In this document: piece by piece, positions 1 to 24,017 of the stretch
Layout of the letters: each line of letters opens with the position of its first letter
How positions within the stretch are numbered: the stretch's first letter is position 1
Source: a virus
Strand: one strand, 5' to 3'
Virus genome (UHGV): UHGV-1451352
Length of the DNA stretch: 24,654 nucleotides
The notes under the pieces: model-generated
What the model was told of the DNA's origin: nothing
Seen by the model: the letters and a program-made list of their open reading frames with translations, nothing else
Databases searched by the model: none
Made by a program: the position numbers and the translations under genes

Positions 1-55
1 TAACGAGCCCCTCCTAAGGGCTAATTGCAGGTTCGATTCCTGCAGGGGACACCAT
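1..55 (+). tRNA. argW: 3' 55 nt of a tRNA-Arg(CCU) gene, truncated by the window start; likely prophage attachment site
   Basis: Read directly: anticodon stem-loop AGCCC-CTCCTAA-GGGCT (anticodon CCT), variable TAATT, T-arm GCAGG-TTCGATT-CCTGC, acceptor 3' strand AGGGGAC, discriminator A, CCA ending at 55. Matches my recollection of E. coli argW. The 5' half lies outside the window. Confidence 0.85.
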
Positions 56-149
56 TTATCAGTTCGCTCCCATCCGCACCAGTCCGCAAAATCCCCTGAA
101 TATCAAGCCTTCCGTAGATTTACAGTTCGTCATGGTTCGCGTCAGATCG

Positions 150-179
150 TTGACAGCCGCACTCCATGACGGGTAAAAA
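150..179 (+). promoter_or_regulatory. Candidate sigma70 promoter upstream of the integrase
   Basis: Perfect -35 TTGACA at 150-155, 17-18 bp spacer, weak -10 GTAAAA/TAAAAA at 173-179. Sequence only; no expression evidence. Confidence 0.3.
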
Positions 180-215
180 GTGGATAAAATAATTTTACCC
201 ACCGGATTTTTACCC

Positions 216-1373
216 ATGCTCACCGTTAAGCAGATTGAAGCAGCAAAGCCGAAAGAAAAACCATACCGCCTTCTCGATGGTAATGGCCTGTACCTTTATG
301 TTCCTGTATCCGGGAAAAAGGTATGGCAGCTTCGCTACAAGATTGACGGTAAGGAGAAAATCCTGACCGTCGGAAAATATCCGCTTATGACTTTGCAGGA
401 AGCAAGGGATAAGGCATGGACTGCGAGGAAAGACATCTCGGTTGGCATCGATCCGGTAAAGGCGAAAAAGGCTTCGTCTAACAACAATTCATTTAGTGCG
501 ATTTACAAGGAATGGTACGAGCACAAGAAGCAAGTCTGGTCAGTAGGCTATGCAACTGAACTTGCCAAAATGTTTGATGACGACATTTTACCCATCATCG
601 GCGGTCTTGAGATTCAGGATATTGAGCCGATGCAACTGCTGGAAGTAATCCGCAGATTTGAAGATCGCGGTGCAATGGAGCGAGCCAACAAAGCCCGCAG
701 AAGATGCGGCGAGGTTTTTCGTTACGCTATTGTCACCGGAAGGGCTAAATATAACCCGGCACCTGACCTTGCAGACGCCATGAAAGGATACCGCAAGAAG
801 AACTTCCCGTTCCTTCCAGCAGACCAGATGCCTGCATTCAACAAAGCACTGGCAACATTTTCAGGAAGTATCGTATCGCTCATTGCGACCAAAGTTTTAC
901 GCTACACAGCCCTAAGAACGAAAGAGCTTCGTTCCATGCTATGGAAGAACGTCGATTTTGAAAACAGGATTATCACCATCGACGCCAGTGTGATGAAGGG
1001 ACGCAAAATTCATGTGGTCCCGATGTCAGACCAGGTGGTTGAACTTCTCACTACGCTAAGCTCCATCACCAAACCAGTATCAGAGTTTGTTTTTGCCGGA
1101 CGCAACGATAAGAAGAAGCCAATCTGCGAGAACGCGGTATTGCTTGTGATCAAACAAATCGGCTATGAAGGTCTGGAAAGCGGTCACGGATTCAGGCATG
1201 AATTCAGCACGATTATGAACGAGCACGAATGGCCTGCTGACGCTATTGAAGTGCAGCTGGCACATGCCAACGGCGGATCTGTGCGCGGTATTTACAACCA
1301 TGCTCAGTATCTCGATAAGCGCAGGGAGATGATGCAGTGGTGGGCGGACTGGCTTGATGAAAAGGTGGAGTGA
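216..1373 (+). CDS. int: P4-type tyrosine integrase (IntS-like, 385 aa)
   Basis: ORF 180..1373. N-terminal DUF4102-like region (LTVKQIEAAKPKEKPYRLLDGNGLYLYVPVSGKKVWQLRYKIDG) and C-terminal catalytic region (HGFRHEF ... RGIYNHAQY). Lies immediately 3' of the tRNA fragment. The ATG at 216 (MLTVKQ) gives the family-typical N-terminus; the GTG at 180 is the alternative start. Confidence 0.9.
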   Translation: MLTVKQIEAAKPKEKPYRLLDGNGLYLYVPVSGKKVWQLRYKIDGKEKILTVGKYPLMTLQEARDKAWTARKDISVGIDPVKAKKASSNNNSFSAIYKEWYEHKKQVWSVGYATELAKMFDDDILPIIGGLEIQDIEPMQLLEVIRRFEDRGAMERANKARRRCGEVFRYAIVTGRAKYNPAPDLADAMKGYRKKNFPFLPADQMPAFNKALATFSGSIVSLIATKVLRYTALRTKELRSMLWKNVDFENRIITIDASVMKGRKIHVVPMSDQVVELLTTLSSITKPVSEFVFAGRNDKKKPICENAVLLVIKQIGYEGLESGHGFRHEFSTIMNEHEWPADAIEVQLAHANGGSVRGIYNHAQYLDKRREMMQWWADWLDEKVE

Positions 1374-1404
1374 TCCACCTTAACCCATATCGAATAGAAC
1401 AAAG

Positions 1405-1446
1405 TCTTGCAATCCAGTGCAAAGCTTTGTGTGCATCAGTTTTTTA
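1405..1446. terminator. Possible terminator region between the convergent integrase and tailspike genes
   Basis: Short palindromes (TTGCA-ATCCAG-TGCAA; CAAAGCTTTG) followed by a T-run at 1440-1446 on the + strand. The stems are weak. Confidence 0.25.
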
Positions 1447-1450
1447 TAAG

Positions 1451-3700
1451 TTAATATGATACAGATATCTCACCTGTTGAGAAGTTCCCTGCGGATCCCT
1501 CTCTACTGCAAAGGGCATATTTTTTATCAACAACATCCCTTGAGTCAGTTGCCACTATCTCATGGCATATATTATTTGCCGACCTATGTACATACGTATT
1601 TACTATCGGCTTAGATGAAGATGAACCCTTAGCTCTCGAACCATCGATAAGACAGTCAGACACTGACATAAATCCTGAAACAAGGTTGTTACTCACATCC
1701 CAATCTATGGCCATTTTGTCAAAACAAACACTGCCAAGCATATATGTGTTTCCACCAGAATAGCCTACAAACCTACGTAATACACCACCATCATGCTTGA
1801 TGTAGCTCCTTGTCATTCCTGATGTGATATTCATATATGCAATATCCATATTGCACTCAATTCCGTAAAGGCAAGATGCATATTCTTGCCTGTATCCAAC
1901 ATAACATACAACTTTACATCCAGTTGATTTAGCTGGAGTCAATTTAATTACAGGAATATCTCTTGTAGATGCATCATGATATGAAATTGCTAACTCAAAT
2001 CTTGCGTCTTTACCATTAAAAGTGCTACCAGTAAAATCTATCAATGACGGCATTTTAAAGTCACGCAAAGGTGATGGCTGTGTTTTAAAGTTATTTTTAA
2101 ATGATAAAATATTGAGTGTTACCTCAGAAGGCCAGTATATATTCGTCTGTACAATTATATTCTTCGGAAGATGTAAAGTGCGCGGCTGGACAGGGTTCCC
2201 GGACGCGATAACATTGTCTGAACGACACAAAATCATATCCACCAAACCGGATGAACCCTCTGGAATACGAACGGATCCACCACGGACTATGAAATCACCT
2301 TTATGTTCACCGTAATCCGTACGTACTCCAAACGGCCCTATGTGAGAATTGATGATCTGTGTGGCCTCGTCGAACGCCCCAGTACCAACCATGACGCCTC
2401 CAGGTATCAGGCAATTATCAACAAGAATCTTTGAGCACCCATAGTGCATGTGAAAGCTATAAAGATTACTGTCTCTCACAACCACATCCCTGCAATAGTT
2501 GCCATCAATAGACCTCCACCCCTTACCCACTTCGCAGCCGATAAAAGTATGTTTAAGGGTGTACTCCATAGCTACGGTATAACGAGAATTATTATCCGTC
2601 TGCGTAATACCCGCACTCGTTAATCTCCAGTTAACTCCGTAGGTGGTAGAGCTACCAAAAATATTAGAATCTGTAGCTGTCATCCCCATGTCATTAAAGT
2701 AAACAACCTCAACATCAACTAAAGAACGTTGGATATCAAAAGCATAGCGTGAAAATTGACCAGTGAAACGCGGCAATACAATTTTATTACGCTTATTTGG
2801 TAGCTTAAATAACGTACAAGTTACGGGGTCGTTGTAAGTATTTTTAAGACTGTAAGCCAATTCCCCTGACTTAGTCATAAAGTTCACTTCACCTTTATAT
2901 TTTGGGCTGAATACACCACCAAGCAACCTATAGAGATCAACCTCTGTTGGACTTATTATTTTGACGATCGAATTACCCCACCCTGTTAAATCCTCAACAC
3001 AAGAAAAAACTGAGGTTAATTCGTTCAATGGGTATGTTGATATATTAACTTCCTTTATATAACTATCATCATCCCTTTCATCTTTATACACAACCTTTCC
3101 GTTTGTTAAGTGGAAAGTACAATTACTCAAATCAAAATCACCATATAGATGTGTTTCTTTATCTATGGTGAAAGTTAGTGGCACGCTTGAGTAGATTTTC
3201 ACTGGATTTCCTTTAAACTCAGCAAAAACAGAATTCAACTGATCGCTATTTCTTTCACCATCAGCAGCAGCTATATCGTATACAGAAAGCCTGACCTCTA
3301 ACCCCCCTATTATTTTGTAACCGTCTGGCGAACTAATTTCATCCATGAACCTTTGCTCAAACTGGTCAGGGTCATACTTCAGCACATTCGGAAAATAGAA
3401 CTGCTGAGAACCGTACGCATCGTATACAGCCATAGAATGGCCTTGCACAGTTACGAATTTGGCAATCTGTCCGTTATATACAGGATACCCGCCAGCGTTA
3501 ATGATGATTGGCTGTGCAACAGGAACGAGAGAACCGTCTTCGTTTTCCACATAAACCTGAATCCGGTTTTCAGGATTTACCGGGTCAGTGTCAATTTTCC
3601 CGATATAAATTTTTCCATTGGCTACGGCTTTAAAAGAACGAGCCATAGTGAAGAGTTGCGAAGGCATCGATACGATCACATTGGCTGTAATGTCTGTCAT
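1451..3700 (-). CDS. Tailspike (P22 gp9-like N-terminal head-binding domain joined to a divergent receptor-binding body), 749 aa
   Basis: The first ~115 aa ([17 protein letters not shown]...[19 protein letters not shown]...[15 protein letters not shown]...NVLKYDPDQ) match the P22 tailspike N-terminal domain as I recall it. The remainder is AT-rich and unrelated to the P22 body. GGAG ribosome-binding site 9 nt upstream of the ATG. Confidence 0.85.
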
Positions 3701-3756
3701 TTAATTTGCTCCAGATACAAGGAAACGTCGCTGAGTGGCTACGGTGAATTTTGGGC

Positions 3757-3781
3757 ATAAAAAAACCCAGCCGAAGCTGGG
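3757..3781 (-). terminator. Intrinsic terminator between ant and the tailspike gene
   Basis: On the - strand RNA: CCCAGC-UUCG-GCUGGG hairpin followed by UUUUUUUAU. Same position as the ant terminator of P22. Confidence 0.6.
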
Positions 3782-3800
3782 TCGTTGCGTTGGTTATCTG

Positions 3801-4679
3801 TCAGTAGTTATGTACTGAAGGAGGTAATTCTTTATTCTTGAGTCTCATCCATGCGGAAAGATTCGTTGGTCCATCTGGCTCATTAATATCAACATCTCGT
3901 GTGTGGTTTATTAAAACGTCTCTCGCCATTCCGATAACATACGAGAATTCATGACCGTAGTCGTAGCATCTGCCGGAATAGTTCGATTGAATTTGTTTTA
4001 ATGCCGGATACAGTTCGCGGAATAATGCCTGTGAGCGGTTGGCATAATCCCATAACCATACAAGGCTGTTTTCTTCTTTTGCAGAAAGCTCGTTGGTTTT
4101 CTTCTCTTGTTTGCCGATGAACTCACCTTCAAGCACTACCCTGTGGATGTACTCTACGGCCAGCGGGATTTGTTCAATTGAAAGTTCATCAATGCTGTCA
4201 ATACCAAAACGCTGATGAACCATATTGTATGCATCGTCATAGCGAAGTCCTTTCTTTCCTACCAGCATGTTTACTGCATCGCGTAGCGGCGTTCTTTCCT
4301 CAACAGTGGTTTTCTTGCCTTTCACATACTCGCCATGTTTGCGAATTGAAGGTAGAACTTCTGCTGTTACCCACTTGCGGAATTTGTGCGGGACCGAACC
4401 TTTATTGACAGCATCGCGGCAGCGCAGAACCAATGTATACATACCTGATTCGCTAACAATGCTTAGATTCTGCTCACCACCAAGGGTGTAACTTAAAGTT
4501 ACTCCCTTTTCATCGTCATCAAGTGCAGTAAGCGCCTTGCGTGAGTTAGTCAGGGTTAAAGCATCACAAACATCTTTTGCTACAAACCACGGCTCACCGC
4601 ATTTGTTGATGACGCGGATTTCACTGTCGCCGAATTTGAAGATGGTGAAATCGTTTTGTGCCTTTGCTATACTTTTCAT
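3801..4679 (-). CDS. ant: Antirepressor Ant (Bro-N/KilA-type N-terminal domain), ~292 aa
   Basis: ORF 3801..4745. Bro-N-like motif [16 protein letters not shown]. Sits in the P22 immI position downstream of arc. The ATG at 4679 has an AGGAAA ribosome-binding site; the longer frame to 4745 would run up to the arc stop and is unlikely. Confidence 0.8.
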
Positions 4680-4747
4680 GTCAATATTTCCTAATCCGAT
4701 TTGTTGATACCGAAGCCCTGACTGTTCCCGCAGTTGGGGCTTCAACT
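4679..4747 (+). ncRNA. Candidate sar-like antisense RNA covering the ant ribosome-binding site
   Basis: From established P22 biology: a ~68-nt antisense RNA starts at the ant start region and ends near the arc 3' end. Here a TATACT -10-like hexamer sits at 4668-4673 and a GAAGCCC...GGGGCTTC hairpin at ~4711-4742. Endpoints are not verified. Confidence 0.3.
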
Positions 4748-4909
4748 TTACGCGCCAATGCGCCCTTCCTTCTTAAAGCTTTCCATTACTCTCTGATAAA
4801 TCTCAGAGTTAACAGACCGACCATTCTCTTCCGCCACCTTGCGTACCAAATCCAATACTTCTTTAGGCCACCGCAAATTGAACTGCGGCATCTTGCTCAT
4901 TCCTTTCAT
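4748..4909 (-). CDS. arc: Arc repressor (53 aa)
   Basis: [53 protein letters not shown] is essentially the P22 Arc sequence. The listed ORF 4748..4972 has a 21-aa extension that is the translation of the Arc operator itself. GAGGTGA ribosome-binding site before the ATG at 4909. Confidence 0.92.
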
Positions 4910-4925
4910 ATTCACCTCACAATAT

Positions 4926-4942
4926 AGGTCCACGGTGGACCT
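4926..4942. promoter_or_regulatory. Mnt operator (Omnt), 17-bp palindrome
   Basis: Exact palindrome AGGTCCACGGTGGACCT read in the sequence; matches the P22 Mnt operator as I recall it. Positioned at the Pant start site. Confidence 0.85.
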
Positions 4943-4943
4943 A

Positions 4944-4977
4944 TTGAGAATATAGTAGAGTGCTTCTATCATGTCAA
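4944..4977. promoter_or_regulatory. Divergent Pant / Pmnt promoter pair
   Basis: - strand: -35 TTGACA (4977..4972), 17-bp spacer, -10 TATATT (4954..4949), driving arc-ant. + strand: -35 TTGAGA (4944-4949), 17-bp spacer, -10 TATCAT (4967-4972), driving mnt. Confidence 0.7.
4952..4972. promoter_or_regulatory. Arc operator (Oarc)
   Basis: ATAGTAGAGTGCTTCTATCAT read in the sequence; matches the P22 Arc operator as I recall it. Lies between the -35 and -10 of Pant. Confidence 0.85.
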
Positions 4978-4999
4978 TACACTAACTTGGAGTGATGGC

Positions 5000-5251
5000 A
5001 TGGCTAGAGATGATCCGCACTTTAACTTCCGTATGCCTATGGAAGTAAGGGAGAAATTAAAATTCAGGGCGAAGGCGAATGGGAGATCAATGAACTCCGA
5101 GTTGTTACAAATCGTCCAAGATGCTCTATCAAAACCATCGCCTGTGACTGGATATCGCGACGATGCAGAACGACTCGCTGATGAGCAGTCAGAGCTTGTT
5201 AAGAAGATGGTGTTTGATACGCTGAAGTATTTGTACAAAAAACCCACCTGA
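5000..5251 (+). CDS. mnt: Mnt repressor (83 aa)
   Basis: MARDDPHFNFRMPMEVREKLKFRAKANGRSMNSELLQIVQDALSK... is near-identical to P22 Mnt as I recall it. GGAGTG ribosome-binding site upstream. Confidence 0.92.
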   Translation: MARDDPHFNFRMPMEVREKLKFRAKANGRSMNSELLQIVQDALSKPSPVTGYRDDAERLADEQSELVKKMVFDTLKYLYKKPT

Positions 5252-5270
5252 AGGTGGGTCCTATTTATTA
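5237..5270. terminator. Bidirectional intrinsic terminator between the convergent mnt and lipoprotein genes
   Basis: CCCACC-TGAA-GGTGGG hairpin (the mnt stop codon is in the loop), flanked by an A6 run on the + strand (U-run for the - transcript) and a T-rich tract downstream on the + strand. Confidence 0.6.
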
Positions 5271-5687
5271 GTCTTGCTTTGTTGATGGTATAAGAGATGC
5301 GTTTGCCTCTTTTGGCTTCAAGGTATACATCCCACCATTAAAAGGATCTACAGCAAGCCAACCAATTAACCCACCAAACACAAGGTTTCCACCAATATAC
5401 CAACCATTAGCATTGGCTTTGATTGGCAGGGTAACTGGTTCGTACCCATCCTTTTCCATAGTGATCTGGTAGCTCTTTTTGCCAAAATAACTACCATCTG
5501 ACTTGGCAAGAGTTACTCCTTGCGGGGTCTTGCCTTGCGCAACAATCACGCCTGATTCGTCTTTTACTTTAAAGCTCGCACCGGAAGGATTGCTGTTCAC
5601 TTGCACGAGCTGTGTTTCGTCACCAACAATAGTTGCGCACCCAGATAACAATATAGCGCCAGCAACAACGCCGATAATCCTCTTCAT
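5268..5687 (-). CDS. Putative lipoprotein (signal peptide plus lipobox), moron in the sieA-equivalent position
   Basis: ORF 5268..5720. MKRIIGVVAGAILLSGC has a type II signal peptide with an L-S-G-C lipobox. Start taken at the ATG at 5687. GC content is lower than the flanking structural genes. No family recognised. Confidence 0.6.
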   Translation of the reverse strand: MKRIIGVVAGAILLSGCATIVGDETQLVQVNSNPSGASFKVKDESGVIVAQGKTPQGVTLAKSDGSYFGKKSYQITMEKDGYEPVTLPIKANANGWYIGGNLVFGGLIGWLAVDPFNGGMYTLKPKEANASLIPSTKQD

Positions 5688-5805
5688 ATCAATTTCCATA
5701 TTTGAAAAAACCGGAAACATCCTAATGACAAACCATTCAAATGTGAAGTAGGCAAAAGATGTTTACTTTTTTCATGGTATCCTGCTCAAAACTAAGGAGG
5801 TTGGT

Positions 5806-6129
5806 GTGTATACAACAGTTATCGTGATAGCTATCGCACTCATTGTGGTTCAGTACCAACTGGCATCTTTAAAACAAAAGATATCTGACCTCAAGACTGA
5901 GAACGAAGCACTTAAAAACTCAATAAAAGATGAGAAGAACAAACTATCATTCACTATATCTGATATTGAGCAATCCATTGAAATTATTGAGAATAATATT
6001 AACAGACTAAAAAAAGAAGATATTCATGAAATCAATGACAATATCAAGGATTTGAAATCTTGGCTTAGGAATGTAGGACAAATCGCCACATCAACACGAG
6101 ATAAGCTCAATCCATCCATGGATGATTAA
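5806..6129 (+). CDS. Small membrane-anchored coiled-coil protein (107 aa), AT-rich moron
   Basis: GTG start 5 nt after a strong AGGAGG ribosome-binding site. N-terminal hydrophobic helix (TVIVIAIALIVVQY) followed by a K/E-rich heptad-like region. About 30-35 percent GC by eye versus roughly 50 percent in neighbours. On the opposite strand to the late operon. Confidence 0.55.
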   Translation: MYTTVIVIAIALIVVQYQLASLKQKISDLKTENEALKNSIKDEKNKLSFTISDIEQSIEIIENNINRLKKEDIHEINDNIKDLKSWLRNVGQIATSTRDKLNPSMDD

Positions 6130-8256
6130 TTACTCCTGTGCTATTCCGCTTAGCGACGCTACAATGCCAGCCCTCGCTAAGCGATTGAACTCTTCGTTTC
6201 CAACTGCATCACGTATTGCTTTTACGGCGGCTTTATTTGCCATAAATCTGCGTTCCGCCGCCGCTAATGCTTCTTTACTTCCGCCAGCTCTTACTGCTTT
6301 CGTGGCTTCCTGAACTGCTTTCTCTATCGCATATCGACCGCTACGCGTGGTGGCAATTTTAGATACAGCACCTTTTAACCCGGCGCCAACTAAAGCACCT
6401 GCGGCCGCGCCTGCAATGCCCCCACCTGCTCCACCAACAATGGCACCCGACGTTGAGTTTGCAATTGCATTTAATACTGTTGAGGTAACGTTGGATAAAC
6501 CAGCGTCAAGATCACGTAGAACATTGGCTGTTCTCCCTGTTCTTTCAATATACTGCTGAGGCTTCACTGCCGCTCTTGCAAGAGTGCCATATGCATCAGC
6601 AATTCTTCCAAGTTCTGAGGAATATCTGCTAATGGCTTTTACATTTTGTGGGGTAAGTATCCCTGCGATATGGTTAATTCCTGCTGCATCAGATTTGCCA
6701 CCACGTACACCATGCGAGATAGCATCCTGCAACATTGATGATATAGCAGGAACACGCTCTGATTCTGGCAGCGCGCGGATCATAGAATGGAATCCAGCAG
6801 GACCATTAAGACCTTTAGCTGACGATGATTGAAGAGATTTTACTCCATTCGTAATCAGTGCATCTGTTGCCAAATCACGCCCAAAAACAGACTCTGCACT
6901 CTCTTGTGCGGATAGCCTCGCTTTAGACAGATCATTAGCTTTTTGCCAGTCATCAAGAAATCCGCCGTTTTCCGCCATTGTGCGCATATCATCAGTAATT
7001 GCCCGGCGTATTTCCCCTGCTCTCCTTGCCGCATTTGCCTCTCCGCTACGCTTATATTTTTGCTCAGCATCAGCAAATTTCGCTCTCCATGCTTTCATGC
7101 CATCAAATGTTACTCCACCTTGATTGTTTGCCTGAACAAACTGTTTCATTTCAGGAGTAAGCGGTATGCCAGCAGATCGCTCTGCCTGAATAACGGCATT
7201 ACCATTTAGCATTCTTGCTTTTTGATTTGGCATTGTTGACCGCACGTCATCCCATGCCGCGCGCTCGGCATCCTTCATCTGATCAAGATTTTGAAGAATC
7301 CTTTGTTTTATAGCCGCACTTTTTTCTGATGCCGTTCCAGATGCGGCCCCAAATTCATCAAGGTTTCGACTTAACTTTGATGATATTTCGTTAAATGCTG
7401 CCTGATGGGCATCCTGAACAATTCCTGGTGTTGATGCCAATGCGCCTTCGGCTTGTGCAATTCCACGACTTCCAGATCGCATTCCTGGTGTTAATGCGTT
7501 TATATCAATTCCAGCAGACTCAGCCGCTTTTGCTACATCTTCGGACACATTAGCGGCCTGACTGGCAATTGACTGACGCCCAGCACCTGACTTTGCCATC
7601 CTGGAAACATCATTAGCAGAATTCAGTGCTGCACCACCAAGAGCCTGTGAAACTCTTGGCGCAATAACGCGCCCGACACCTGAAAGAACGCCTTGAGCAC
7701 CAATATTGATACCACCGTTAATGGCAGCATTTTGTGCAAAGTCGCCCTCCTGATTTGCAGCATCAGCAAGAGAACCTGCAATCATGTTTCCTGCGGAACC
7801 GATATCTCCAGCGAGCTTTGCTGTCGCTCCAACAGCTTTTGCCGCTGTGCCAATTGGCAGGAGATACCCACCAATTGTTTCACCGGCTTGTGCGTAAGGG
7901 TCTGTCGGTCGATCGACAGGGCGATAAACATCATCCAAAACCTTGGGGCCACCAAGCCCCTGACTGATTGCATTAATCAGACTTGCGCCACCCTGCAATA
8001 CGTCAAATGGTATGTTTACCAGACCACGACCAGCCTGTTCTGCAATTTGCCCTGCACTTTGACCACCAGTGAGCCAATCGCCAGCTTGTTGCATCAATGA
8101 TGGTTCTTCCCGTGTTGGTGCATTATTGGCCTGATTAACTGTTTGTTGCTGAACAGCCTGACCAGCAAAATACTCATCAATGGCGGTGCCAATATCTTCG
8201 GTGCTCGTACCATCAGGAAAGGTAAATGTCTTACCGTTTGCAGTTACTTTCATCAT
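6130..8256 (-). CDS. Ejection (injection) protein, P22 gp16-like, 708 aa
   Basis: Position and order match P22 (7-20-16). Gly/Ala-rich low-complexity protein. N-terminus [16 protein letters not shown] matches my recollection of gp16. Confidence 0.8.
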
Positions 8257-23861: not shown

Positions 23862-23937
23862 TGGTGCCGGTTAACGGATTTGAACCGCTACCTATTCACT
23901 TACAAGGCGACCGCTCTACCATTGGAGCTAAACCAGC
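23862..23937 (-). tRNA. Predicted tRNA-Thr (anticodon TGT), 76 nt
   Basis: Cloverleaf folded by hand: acceptor GCTGGTT/AACCGGC (one G-U), D-arm GCTC-CAATGGTA-GAGC, anticodon arm GTCGC-CTTGTAA-GTGAA (4 of 5 pairs), variable TAGGT, T-arm AGCGG-TTCAAAT-CCGTT, discriminator A, encoded CCA. Confidence 0.65.
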
Positions 23938-23942
23938 ATGTT

Positions 23943-24017
23943 TGGCGGGACAGCGTGGACTCGAACCACGATAAGAAGGTTAACAGCCTTCCGTAATGAC
24001 CTTTATACGACTGACCC
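23943..24017 (-). tRNA. Predicted tRNA-Asn (anticodon GTT), 75 nt
   Basis: Cloverleaf folded by hand: acceptor GGGTCAG/CTGTCCC (one T-T mismatch), 3-bp D-stem, anticodon arm GAAGG-CTGTTAA-CCTTC (perfect), T-arm CGTGG-TTCGAGT-CCACG, discriminator G, encoded CCA. Five nt from the tRNA-Thr. Confidence 0.6.

Follow-up and report, generated by a model that had tools for sequence, protein, structure and literature searches.

Gene locus and overall organization

The window analyzed here is the whole of the virus genome UHGV-1451352, a complete metagenome scaffold of 24,654 bp (ENA ERZ28662119, scaffold_871). It contains, at 1451..3700 on the minus strand, an open reading frame (ORF) of 749 amino acids that encodes a phage tailspike; the ATG start and TAA stop follow from the ORF list and a codon check. 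The scaffold is organized as a P22-like late arm with terminase, portal, scaffold, coat, tail accessory and ejection genes, accompanied by an immI region (mnt/arc/ant), the tailspike and an IntS-type integrase. It aligns with Lederbergvirus-like phages at 93-96% identity across about half of its length. The Pfam families found in the neighbors of the tailspike are P22_gp7, Inj_translocase, Phage_P22_gp16, Arc/Mnt and Bro-N with P22_AR_C, and the tailspike lies downstream of ant/arc/mnt and the ejection-protein genes, as in the virion module of P22-like phages. The gene is best explained as coding for the only tailspike of a temperate E. coli phage of the P22-like (Lederbergvirus) type, a tailspike in which a conserved head-binding anchor has been joined to an unrelated, lyase-like receptor-binding body; taken as a whole, this explanation is a probable one. 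The features of the locus are listed in Table 1.

Table 1. Features of the tailspike gene and its immediate surroundings (window coordinates)
Feature	Position	Strand	Basis and remarks
Tailspike gene	1451..3700	-	749 codons plus TAA at 1451-1453; PF09008 call on the source scaffold
P22-type head-binding (anchor) domain, spike-to-tail attachment	3356..3700	-	Residues 1-115; PF09008, PDB matches, DNA identity
Crossover zone	3294..3401	-	Gene nt 300-407, codons ~100-136; takes in the conserved anchor end
Linker and N-proximal body sub-domain	2891..3355	-	Residues 116-270; linker short and helical; replaced more often than other parts in relatives
Central right-handed β-helix, predicted lyase catalytic domain	1931..2890	-	Residues 271-590; holds the higher-GC core at ~2100-2550
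Tyr374 codon, predicted catalytic Tyr	2579..2581	-	Equivalent to K64-ORF41 Tyr528; hhalign and hmmalign
His419 codon, predicted catalytic His	2444..2446	-	Equivalent to K64-ORF41 His574; hhalign and hmmalign
Arg460 codon, predicted catalytic Arg in R-x-D-[YF]-G motif	2321..2323	-	Equivalent to K64-ORF41 Arg628; alignment
C-terminal domain, most divergent across the family	1454..1930	-	Residues 591-749
Spacer separating the stop codons of the convergent integrase and tailspike genes	1374..1450	.	77 bp; bounds the exchanged cassette on its 3' side
Hairpin plus T-run resembling a terminator, in the gap from ant to the tailspike start	3764..3783	-	Consensus scan only; function putative

Head-binding anchor and the end of homology

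Residues 1-113 match the entire Pfam Head_binding profile (PF09008, positions 1-113 of 113) with an E value of 1.8e-65 and 218.7 bits against a cut-off of 24. Sequence matches in the PDB are limited to residues 1-115/126 and come from Sf6 gp14 (1.4e-63), P22 gp9 (~1e-48) and fragments of these proteins. The gap-free identity over 115 residues is 73% with P22 and 88.7% with Sf6. The original prediction, made from the letters alone, that this part follows P22 almost residue for residue is accurate for the Sf6/HK620/CUS-3 group but generous for P22 itself. Homology shows residues 1-115 to be the conserved anchor that seats the spike in the tail.

At the DNA level, 31 Lederbergvirus-type phage records align with the anchor (window ~3354-3700) at 80-92% identity. 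All 31 matches end at query positions 1903-1916, which correspond to window 3353-3366 and mostly to 3354-3362 (residue ~115), and the body is not covered by any of these records. In phage Dewey, the closest whole-genome relative, homology extends over 40-1368 (integrase), is interrupted, resumes over 3362-3701 (anchor) and is interrupted again over the immI region. No similarity between the residues beyond 120 and the catalytic β-helix of P22, Sf6 or epsilon34 was found. The protein parts from P22 at about residue 115, and its body is unrelated in sequence to the P22 endorhamnosidase.

Fold and enzyme class of the body

An AlphaFold2 (AF2) model of residues 111-749, built with 26 homologues, has a predicted local distance difference test (pLDDT) score of 86 and a predicted template modeling (pTM) score of 0.85. 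The model is mainly β, with helices at model residues 2-28 and β structure after them, and the C-terminal domain is modeled with confidence except for its last 10 residues. In a Foldseek search against the PDB the best match is K64-ORF41 of Klebsiella phage SH-KP152410 (PDB 8X8M; E 2.7e-16, TM 0.64), followed by the K1 capsule lyase, AP22 gp54, LKA1 gp49 and phi297 gp61, so that the best neighbors are all polysaccharide lyases. The predicted fold is a right-handed parallel β-helix, structurally closest to tailspike lyases with a Tyr/His/Arg active site. The original prediction of a β-helix is upheld, the body being a right-handed β-helix depolymerase-like module, while its further assignment as a glycanase (a hydrolase) probably names the wrong class.

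Most PDB hits of the full-length family profile arose through the PF18668 anchors that relatives carry and not through the body, and they were set aside; a body-only family profile found nothing significant among PDB sequences. An exhaustive profile search of 1.84 billion proteins yielded 73 representative clusters (50% identity) at E<=1e-3, 18 of them at E<=1e-30. When the members admitted at E<=1e-30 are included, the profile reaches K64-ORF41 with E 4.5e-5 at PDB-sized Z, and with all members at E<=1e-3 the match strengthens to E 6.7e-20 over K64-ORF41 residues 279-650. K64-ORF41 is listed in a review (PMC11652154) as a β-elimination lyase with an intrachain active site composed of Tyr528, His574 and Arg628, and the K1 lyase with Tyr311, His373 and Arg397; the published catalytic residues of both enzymes were confirmed in the phage-encoded sequences. 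In the alignment obtained with the iterated profile, Tyr374, His419 and Arg460 fall directly opposite K64-ORF41 Tyr528, His574 and Arg628, respectively. The local motifs around the aligned residues agree (FHMH419 with VDMH574, and VR460-TDYG with AR628-GDFG). Tyr374 is conserved in 50/50 close and 50/52 distant family members, His419 in 49/49 and 51/52, and Arg460 in 49/49 and 44/51, respectively; Asp462 and Tyr463 are conserved too. Because its structural neighbors are lyases, homology to K64-ORF41 is detectable after profile iteration and the Tyr/His/Arg residues are invariant in the close family, the body is probably a member of the tailspike-lyase class rather than a glycanase. It would be a distant homologue of the K64-ORF41, LKA1 gp49, AP22 gp54 and K1-lyase depolymerases that has kept Tyr374-His419-Arg460. 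The spike may bind a host surface polysaccharide and cut it by β-elimination at a 4-linked uronic acid, and this cleavage would let the virion reach the outer membrane.

Several results weigh against this assignment. The un-iterated body profile gives K64-ORF41 an E value of 0.45 at PDB-sized Z and leaves the solved lyases unreached, and the K1 lyase is unmatched by sequence even with the iterated profile. A single-template hhalign alignment to K64-ORF41 has a probability of 13.9% and places the Arg seven residues off, a low score and a misplacement that were resolved only by iterating with the relatives from the exhaustive search. The structural evidence is a predicted monomer, in which the geometry of the triad is putative. 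Acidic residues are conserved as well (Asp399, Asp444/Glu445, Asp462 and Glu465) and leave room for a hydrolase mechanism. Lastly, the spikes of two E. coli lysogens that carry close alleles of the gene differ from each other at 25 scattered residues, and yet the two strains (n=2) belong to different O-serogroups.

The same mosaic architecture could carry a glycoside hydrolase, an endoglycosidase like those of P22, Sf6 and HK620, and most of the doubt left by the lyase assignment falls to such a hydrolase of the same fold. The acidic residues just named are conserved in the close family, but Asp399, Asp444/Glu445 and Glu465 are not conserved in its distant members, in which the Tyr/His/Arg triad is still the most conserved feature of the family, and the homology detected at profile level is specifically to the K64-ORF41 lyase. 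We consider a hydrolase somewhat unlikely. That the body only binds its receptor, or modifies it (for example by deacetylation) without cleaving it, is very unlikely. Some tailspike-like proteins are indeed non-catalytic or esterases, but no esterase (SGNH) domain is found here, Pfam and PHROGs give only the anchor and a generic tail-fiber family, and the lyase triad is strictly conserved over homologues of 43-100% identity, which argues for retained catalysis.

Evolution of the body cassette

The lyase-like body is not an orphan but belongs to a small family that moves among five or more phage genera, fused to anchors of at least three kinds. In a tblastn search of phage genomes, four unrelated phages proved to have homologues covering the full body: the myovirus vB_EcoM_ECO1230-10 (Jilinvirus; Orf17, 68.6% body identity), vB_EcolP_P433.1 (Vectrevirus, 60.3%), the phiEco32-like phage Paul (Kuravirus, 55.6%) and the Proteus podovirus PM16 (42.5%). 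A search of 5.8 billion proteins gave 40 clusters with the body; close alleles fall in, among others, cluster P0001 with 134 members and cluster P0020 with 50. The anchors in front of it are PF09008, PF18668 (TSP1/gp66-type), Calx-beta with PF18668, a weak T7-tail-fiber N-terminus and N-termini with no Pfam match, and its hosts are Escherichia, Enterobacter hormaechei and Proteus mirabilis, many of the carriers being prophages. Comparative sequence evidence shows the body, from residue ~116 onward, to be a horizontally acquired cassette shared by unrelated phage genera, which would serve to bind and degrade the receptor. In contigs of Proteus mirabilis, two further proteins (P0036 and P0039) have a P22-type head-binding anchor fused to a Proteus-type body of ~46% identity, and the pairing of this anchor with this body therefore exists in a second genus.

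The cassette is itself a mosaic. The PF18668-anchored relatives P0010-P0019 are 35-65% identical to it over residues 111-270 and 72-100% identical beyond; the P0002 type is 92-100% identical up to ~residue 550 and then 62-78%; and P0020 is 90-100% identical up to ~residue 190 and then 48-88%. With the Proteus homologues the C-terminal domain shares 10-38% identity, and with the P0002 type 62-78%. The proposal of a swap at the usual linker thus stands for the end of the head-binding domain but is incomplete, since further breakpoints lie within the body at ~190, ~270 and ~550-590.

The crossover at the anchor can be located with the alleles of two E. coli prophages, in pigeon strain 'numer 3' and chicken strain JX21CE33, whose tailspikes are 96-98% identical to that of the window (18 and 32 differences, respectively, per 749 residues). 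Among these three close alleles the synonymous divergence (dS) is 0.32-0.62 in the anchor (residues 1-115) and 0.02-0.04 in the body (residues 116-749), and the ratio of nonsynonymous to synonymous divergence (dN/dS) is 0.03-0.06 and 0.43-0.52, respectively. Over the interval from gene nt 300-330 to nt 407 (window ~3294-3401), the density of differences from the prophage alleles drops from ~10-15% to ~1-2%, and it climbs again past the tailspike stop codon. Since dS in the anchor greatly exceeds that in the body, what is in essence a single body allele has come, recently, to stand behind anchor alleles that diverged long ago. These divergence figures put the crossovers in or just after the conserved end of the anchor, and show them to be recent, within its last conserved ~40 nt. 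The sequence comparisons show that the cassette was joined to the anchor by homologous recombination in these last conserved ~40 nt of the anchor-coding region. The contrast in dS is direct evidence of a swap, stronger than the argument from GC content, and with synonymous divergence changing ten-fold within the final ~40 nt of the anchor, the gene is an unusually clean example of a crossover site. The body dN/dS, about ten-fold above that of the anchor and based on only 21-42 substitutions, is consistent with selection on the receptor-binding part being either relaxed or diversifying. The 'bsq1 boundary sequence' of CUS-3 was considered as the junction and rejected; its position is upstream of the gene, in the interval separating ant from the tailspike, and not intragenic.

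The composition of the body agrees with the AT-rich character first noticed in it. Its GC content is 0.393 compared with 0.489 in the rest of the window (z = -8.1, p ~7e-16), and it is the lowest-GC 1905-bp stretch of the scaffold, although the step at the junction itself is small: the anchor has a GC content of 0.443 (z = -1.8, p 0.08). At third codon positions (GC3) the body has 0.344 and the anchor 0.452 (p 0.026). GC is uneven inside the body, mostly 0.34-0.40 with a rise to 0.46-0.47 at ~2100-2550, and another stretch of the window, 5500-6300, is as AT-rich as the body. In all four other contexts compared, as well as here, the flanks are less AT-rich than the body, whose composition therefore travels with the module. 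That the low GC reflects merely the amino-acid composition or codon usage of a β-helix, with no recent horizontal exchange, is scarcely credible: the weak step at the exact junction and the heterogeneous composition of the body would be in its favor, but it is contradicted by the flank comparison, by a body GC3 of 0.34 against 0.43-0.58 in most neighboring genes, by the coincidence of the homology break with the compositional change, by the AT-richness of the cassette relative to each of five phage genera, and by the difference density and a more than ten-fold gap in dS between anchor and body among close alleles.

The higher-GC core at 2100-2550 (residues ~383-533) has a GC3 of 0.45 and is also the most conserved segment of the family. 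This suggests that the flanking sub-domains have been replaced more often than the catalytic core.

Host serogroups and substrate

The wzx/wzy names given by the Prokaryotic Genome Annotation Pipeline (PGAP) place 'numer 3' in serogroup O54 and JX21CE33 in O174. The O54 cluster of 'numer 3' contains rfbBDAC, several glycosyltransferase genes and an ATP-grasp amidoligase gene, followed by ugd and a gla-like NAD-dependent epimerase gene, and the O174 cluster of JX21CE33, which adjoins ugd, contains only glycosyltransferase genes with wzx and wzy. The O54 gene set is that expected for a uronic-acid-containing O-unit, which fits a lyase and may be taken as an indirect hint. We take O54 to contain 4-linked galacturonic acid and O174 glucuronic acid, an assumption that is given no weight as evidence here. 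The polysaccharide attacked by the spike would most likely be an O-antigen of acidic character; a capsule or some other acidic glycan is less likely. The claim that specificity and substrate cannot be read from the sequence holds for specificity, but comparison of the O-antigen loci of the two lysogens does provide some information on the substrate.

The different O-serogroups of the lysogens weaken a simple assignment of the spike to one O-antigen. Of 5,426 complete E. coli genomes, those of two strains carry the body, one from each serogroup, and with no further carriers even at 'distant' blastn sensitivity serogroup statistics are impossible; the O54 wzy gene is present in 14/5,426 of these genomes and the O174 wzy gene in 26/5,426. 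The body type is absent from the serogroup table of Pas et al. 2023, in which it thus has no serogroup-assigned subtype of receptor-binding protein. A published substrate was not found for any of the relatives ECO1230-10, P433.1, Paul and PM16. Dpo42 of vB_EcoM_ECOO78, a characterized depolymerase from a relative of ECO1230-10, was examined as a possible lead and rejected; it is another protein, whose C-terminus also differs, and comes from a phage outside the tblastn matches.

A further suggestion, which we regard as unlikely, is that the gene encodes the first lyase-type tailspike to be described on a P22-like virion and that its receptor is not a single O-serogroup but either an acidic motif common to O54 and O174 or a non-O-antigen glycan containing uronic acid, such as enterobacterial common antigen or colanic acid. 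A shared glycan receptor, if true, would explain both the near-identical spikes in lysogens of two serogroups and the span of the family over Escherichia, Enterobacter and Proteus.

Comparison with other tailspikes

The tailspikes of Lederbergvirus are known to keep an anchor of ~115-124 residues and to swap the receptor-binding domain behind it, a property that is used for O-serogroup prediction (PMC10408124). The protein described here shares with P22 gp9, Sf6 gp14, HK620 gp9 and the CUS-3 endosialidase the head-binding anchor (73-89% identity), the position downstream of ant, and the retention of the anchor with exchange of the body at residue ~110-125. The bodies of these four are hydrolases, whereas the body here is unrelated to them in sequence and lyase-like. 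Their activities are those of endorhamnosidase, endo-N-acetylglucosaminidase and endosialidase. β-Helix lyase tailspikes, on the other hand, are well known in phages of Klebsiella, Pseudomonas and Acinetobacter. To our knowledge, no lyase-class body on a P22-type anchor has been characterized.

The resemblance to K64-ORF41 lies in the homology detected with iterated profiles, the aligned Tyr/His/Arg and the R-x-D-[FY]-G motif. The two proteins differ in that the identity in the structural alignment is only ~12%, the His-to-Arg spacing is 54 residues in K64-ORF41 and 41 here, the K64-ORF41 anchor is a T7-type N-terminus with PF18668 in place of the P22 head-binding domain, and the host is Klebsiella with the K64 capsule. 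LKA1 gp49 and phi297 gp61 of Pseudomonas phages, AP22 gp54 of an Acinetobacter phage and the Klebsiella K1 lyases, represented together by PDB entries 4RU4, 4RU5, 4Y9V, 7W1C and 9K4A, have no sequence-level match to the body, and their substrates are Pseudomonas, Acinetobacter and Klebsiella glycans, respectively. The tailspikes of ECO1230-10 (Orf17), P433.1, Paul and PM16 are homologous over the whole body and have the same conserved triad, but they have other anchors and belong to myovirus, phiEco32-like and SP6/T7-like podovirus virions.

The combination of a probable lyase-class body with a P22-type anchor is what sets this gene apart; a host-range swap of this kind is itself well known, and the established picture of modular tailspike evolution is unchanged. 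Tailspike bodies set the host range of phages and serve as a source of depolymerases and typing reagents. The present case adds a small family whose enzyme class can be tested, with three residues as candidates for catalysis and O54 and O174 as candidate host serogroups.

Neighboring genes and minor features

The scaffold opens 21 nt into a segment that matches the argW tRNA-Arg gene of E. coli JX21CE33 exactly and in register, the attachment (att) region (window 1-215). The IntS-type integrase gene (window 216-1373) follows the argW segment and converges on the tailspike, and the order argW-int-tailspike-ant is also present in JX21CE33. In 'numer 3' the tailspike is located at the prophage end beside ybhB/bio, and the int remnant consists of its last 84 nt only. 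A sequence search for the lambda att core showed it to be absent from the window.

Two small AT-rich ORFs (GC 0.33-0.36), at 5268-5720 on the minus strand and 5806-6129 on the plus strand, occupy the interval from mnt to the gp16-like ejection gene, where P22 has sieA. One of them is lipoprotein-like (signal ...LLSGC; phrog_6823) and the other encodes a 107-aa coiled-coil protein (phrog_5962). Neither has a Pfam match or a credible PADLOC match, the PADLOC matches of the 107-aa ORF having been dismissed as weak coiled-coil similarity. They are possible superinfection-exclusion or moron genes.

The immI-like block (ant, arc, mnt and the two small ORFs; window 3702-6142) is missing in Dewey, in which the tailspike directly adjoins the gene for a DNA-transfer protein. 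The annotated tailspike coding sequence of Dewey (L001, 3473-3568) begins 95 nt upstream of the position homologous to the ATG here, and either the start in that record is over-extended or the 5' end is truly different. Near the scaffold end with the lysis and late-regulation genes, the phage carries two adjacent tRNA genes, tRNA-Thr(TGT) and tRNA-Asn(GTT), at 23862-24017 on the minus strand.
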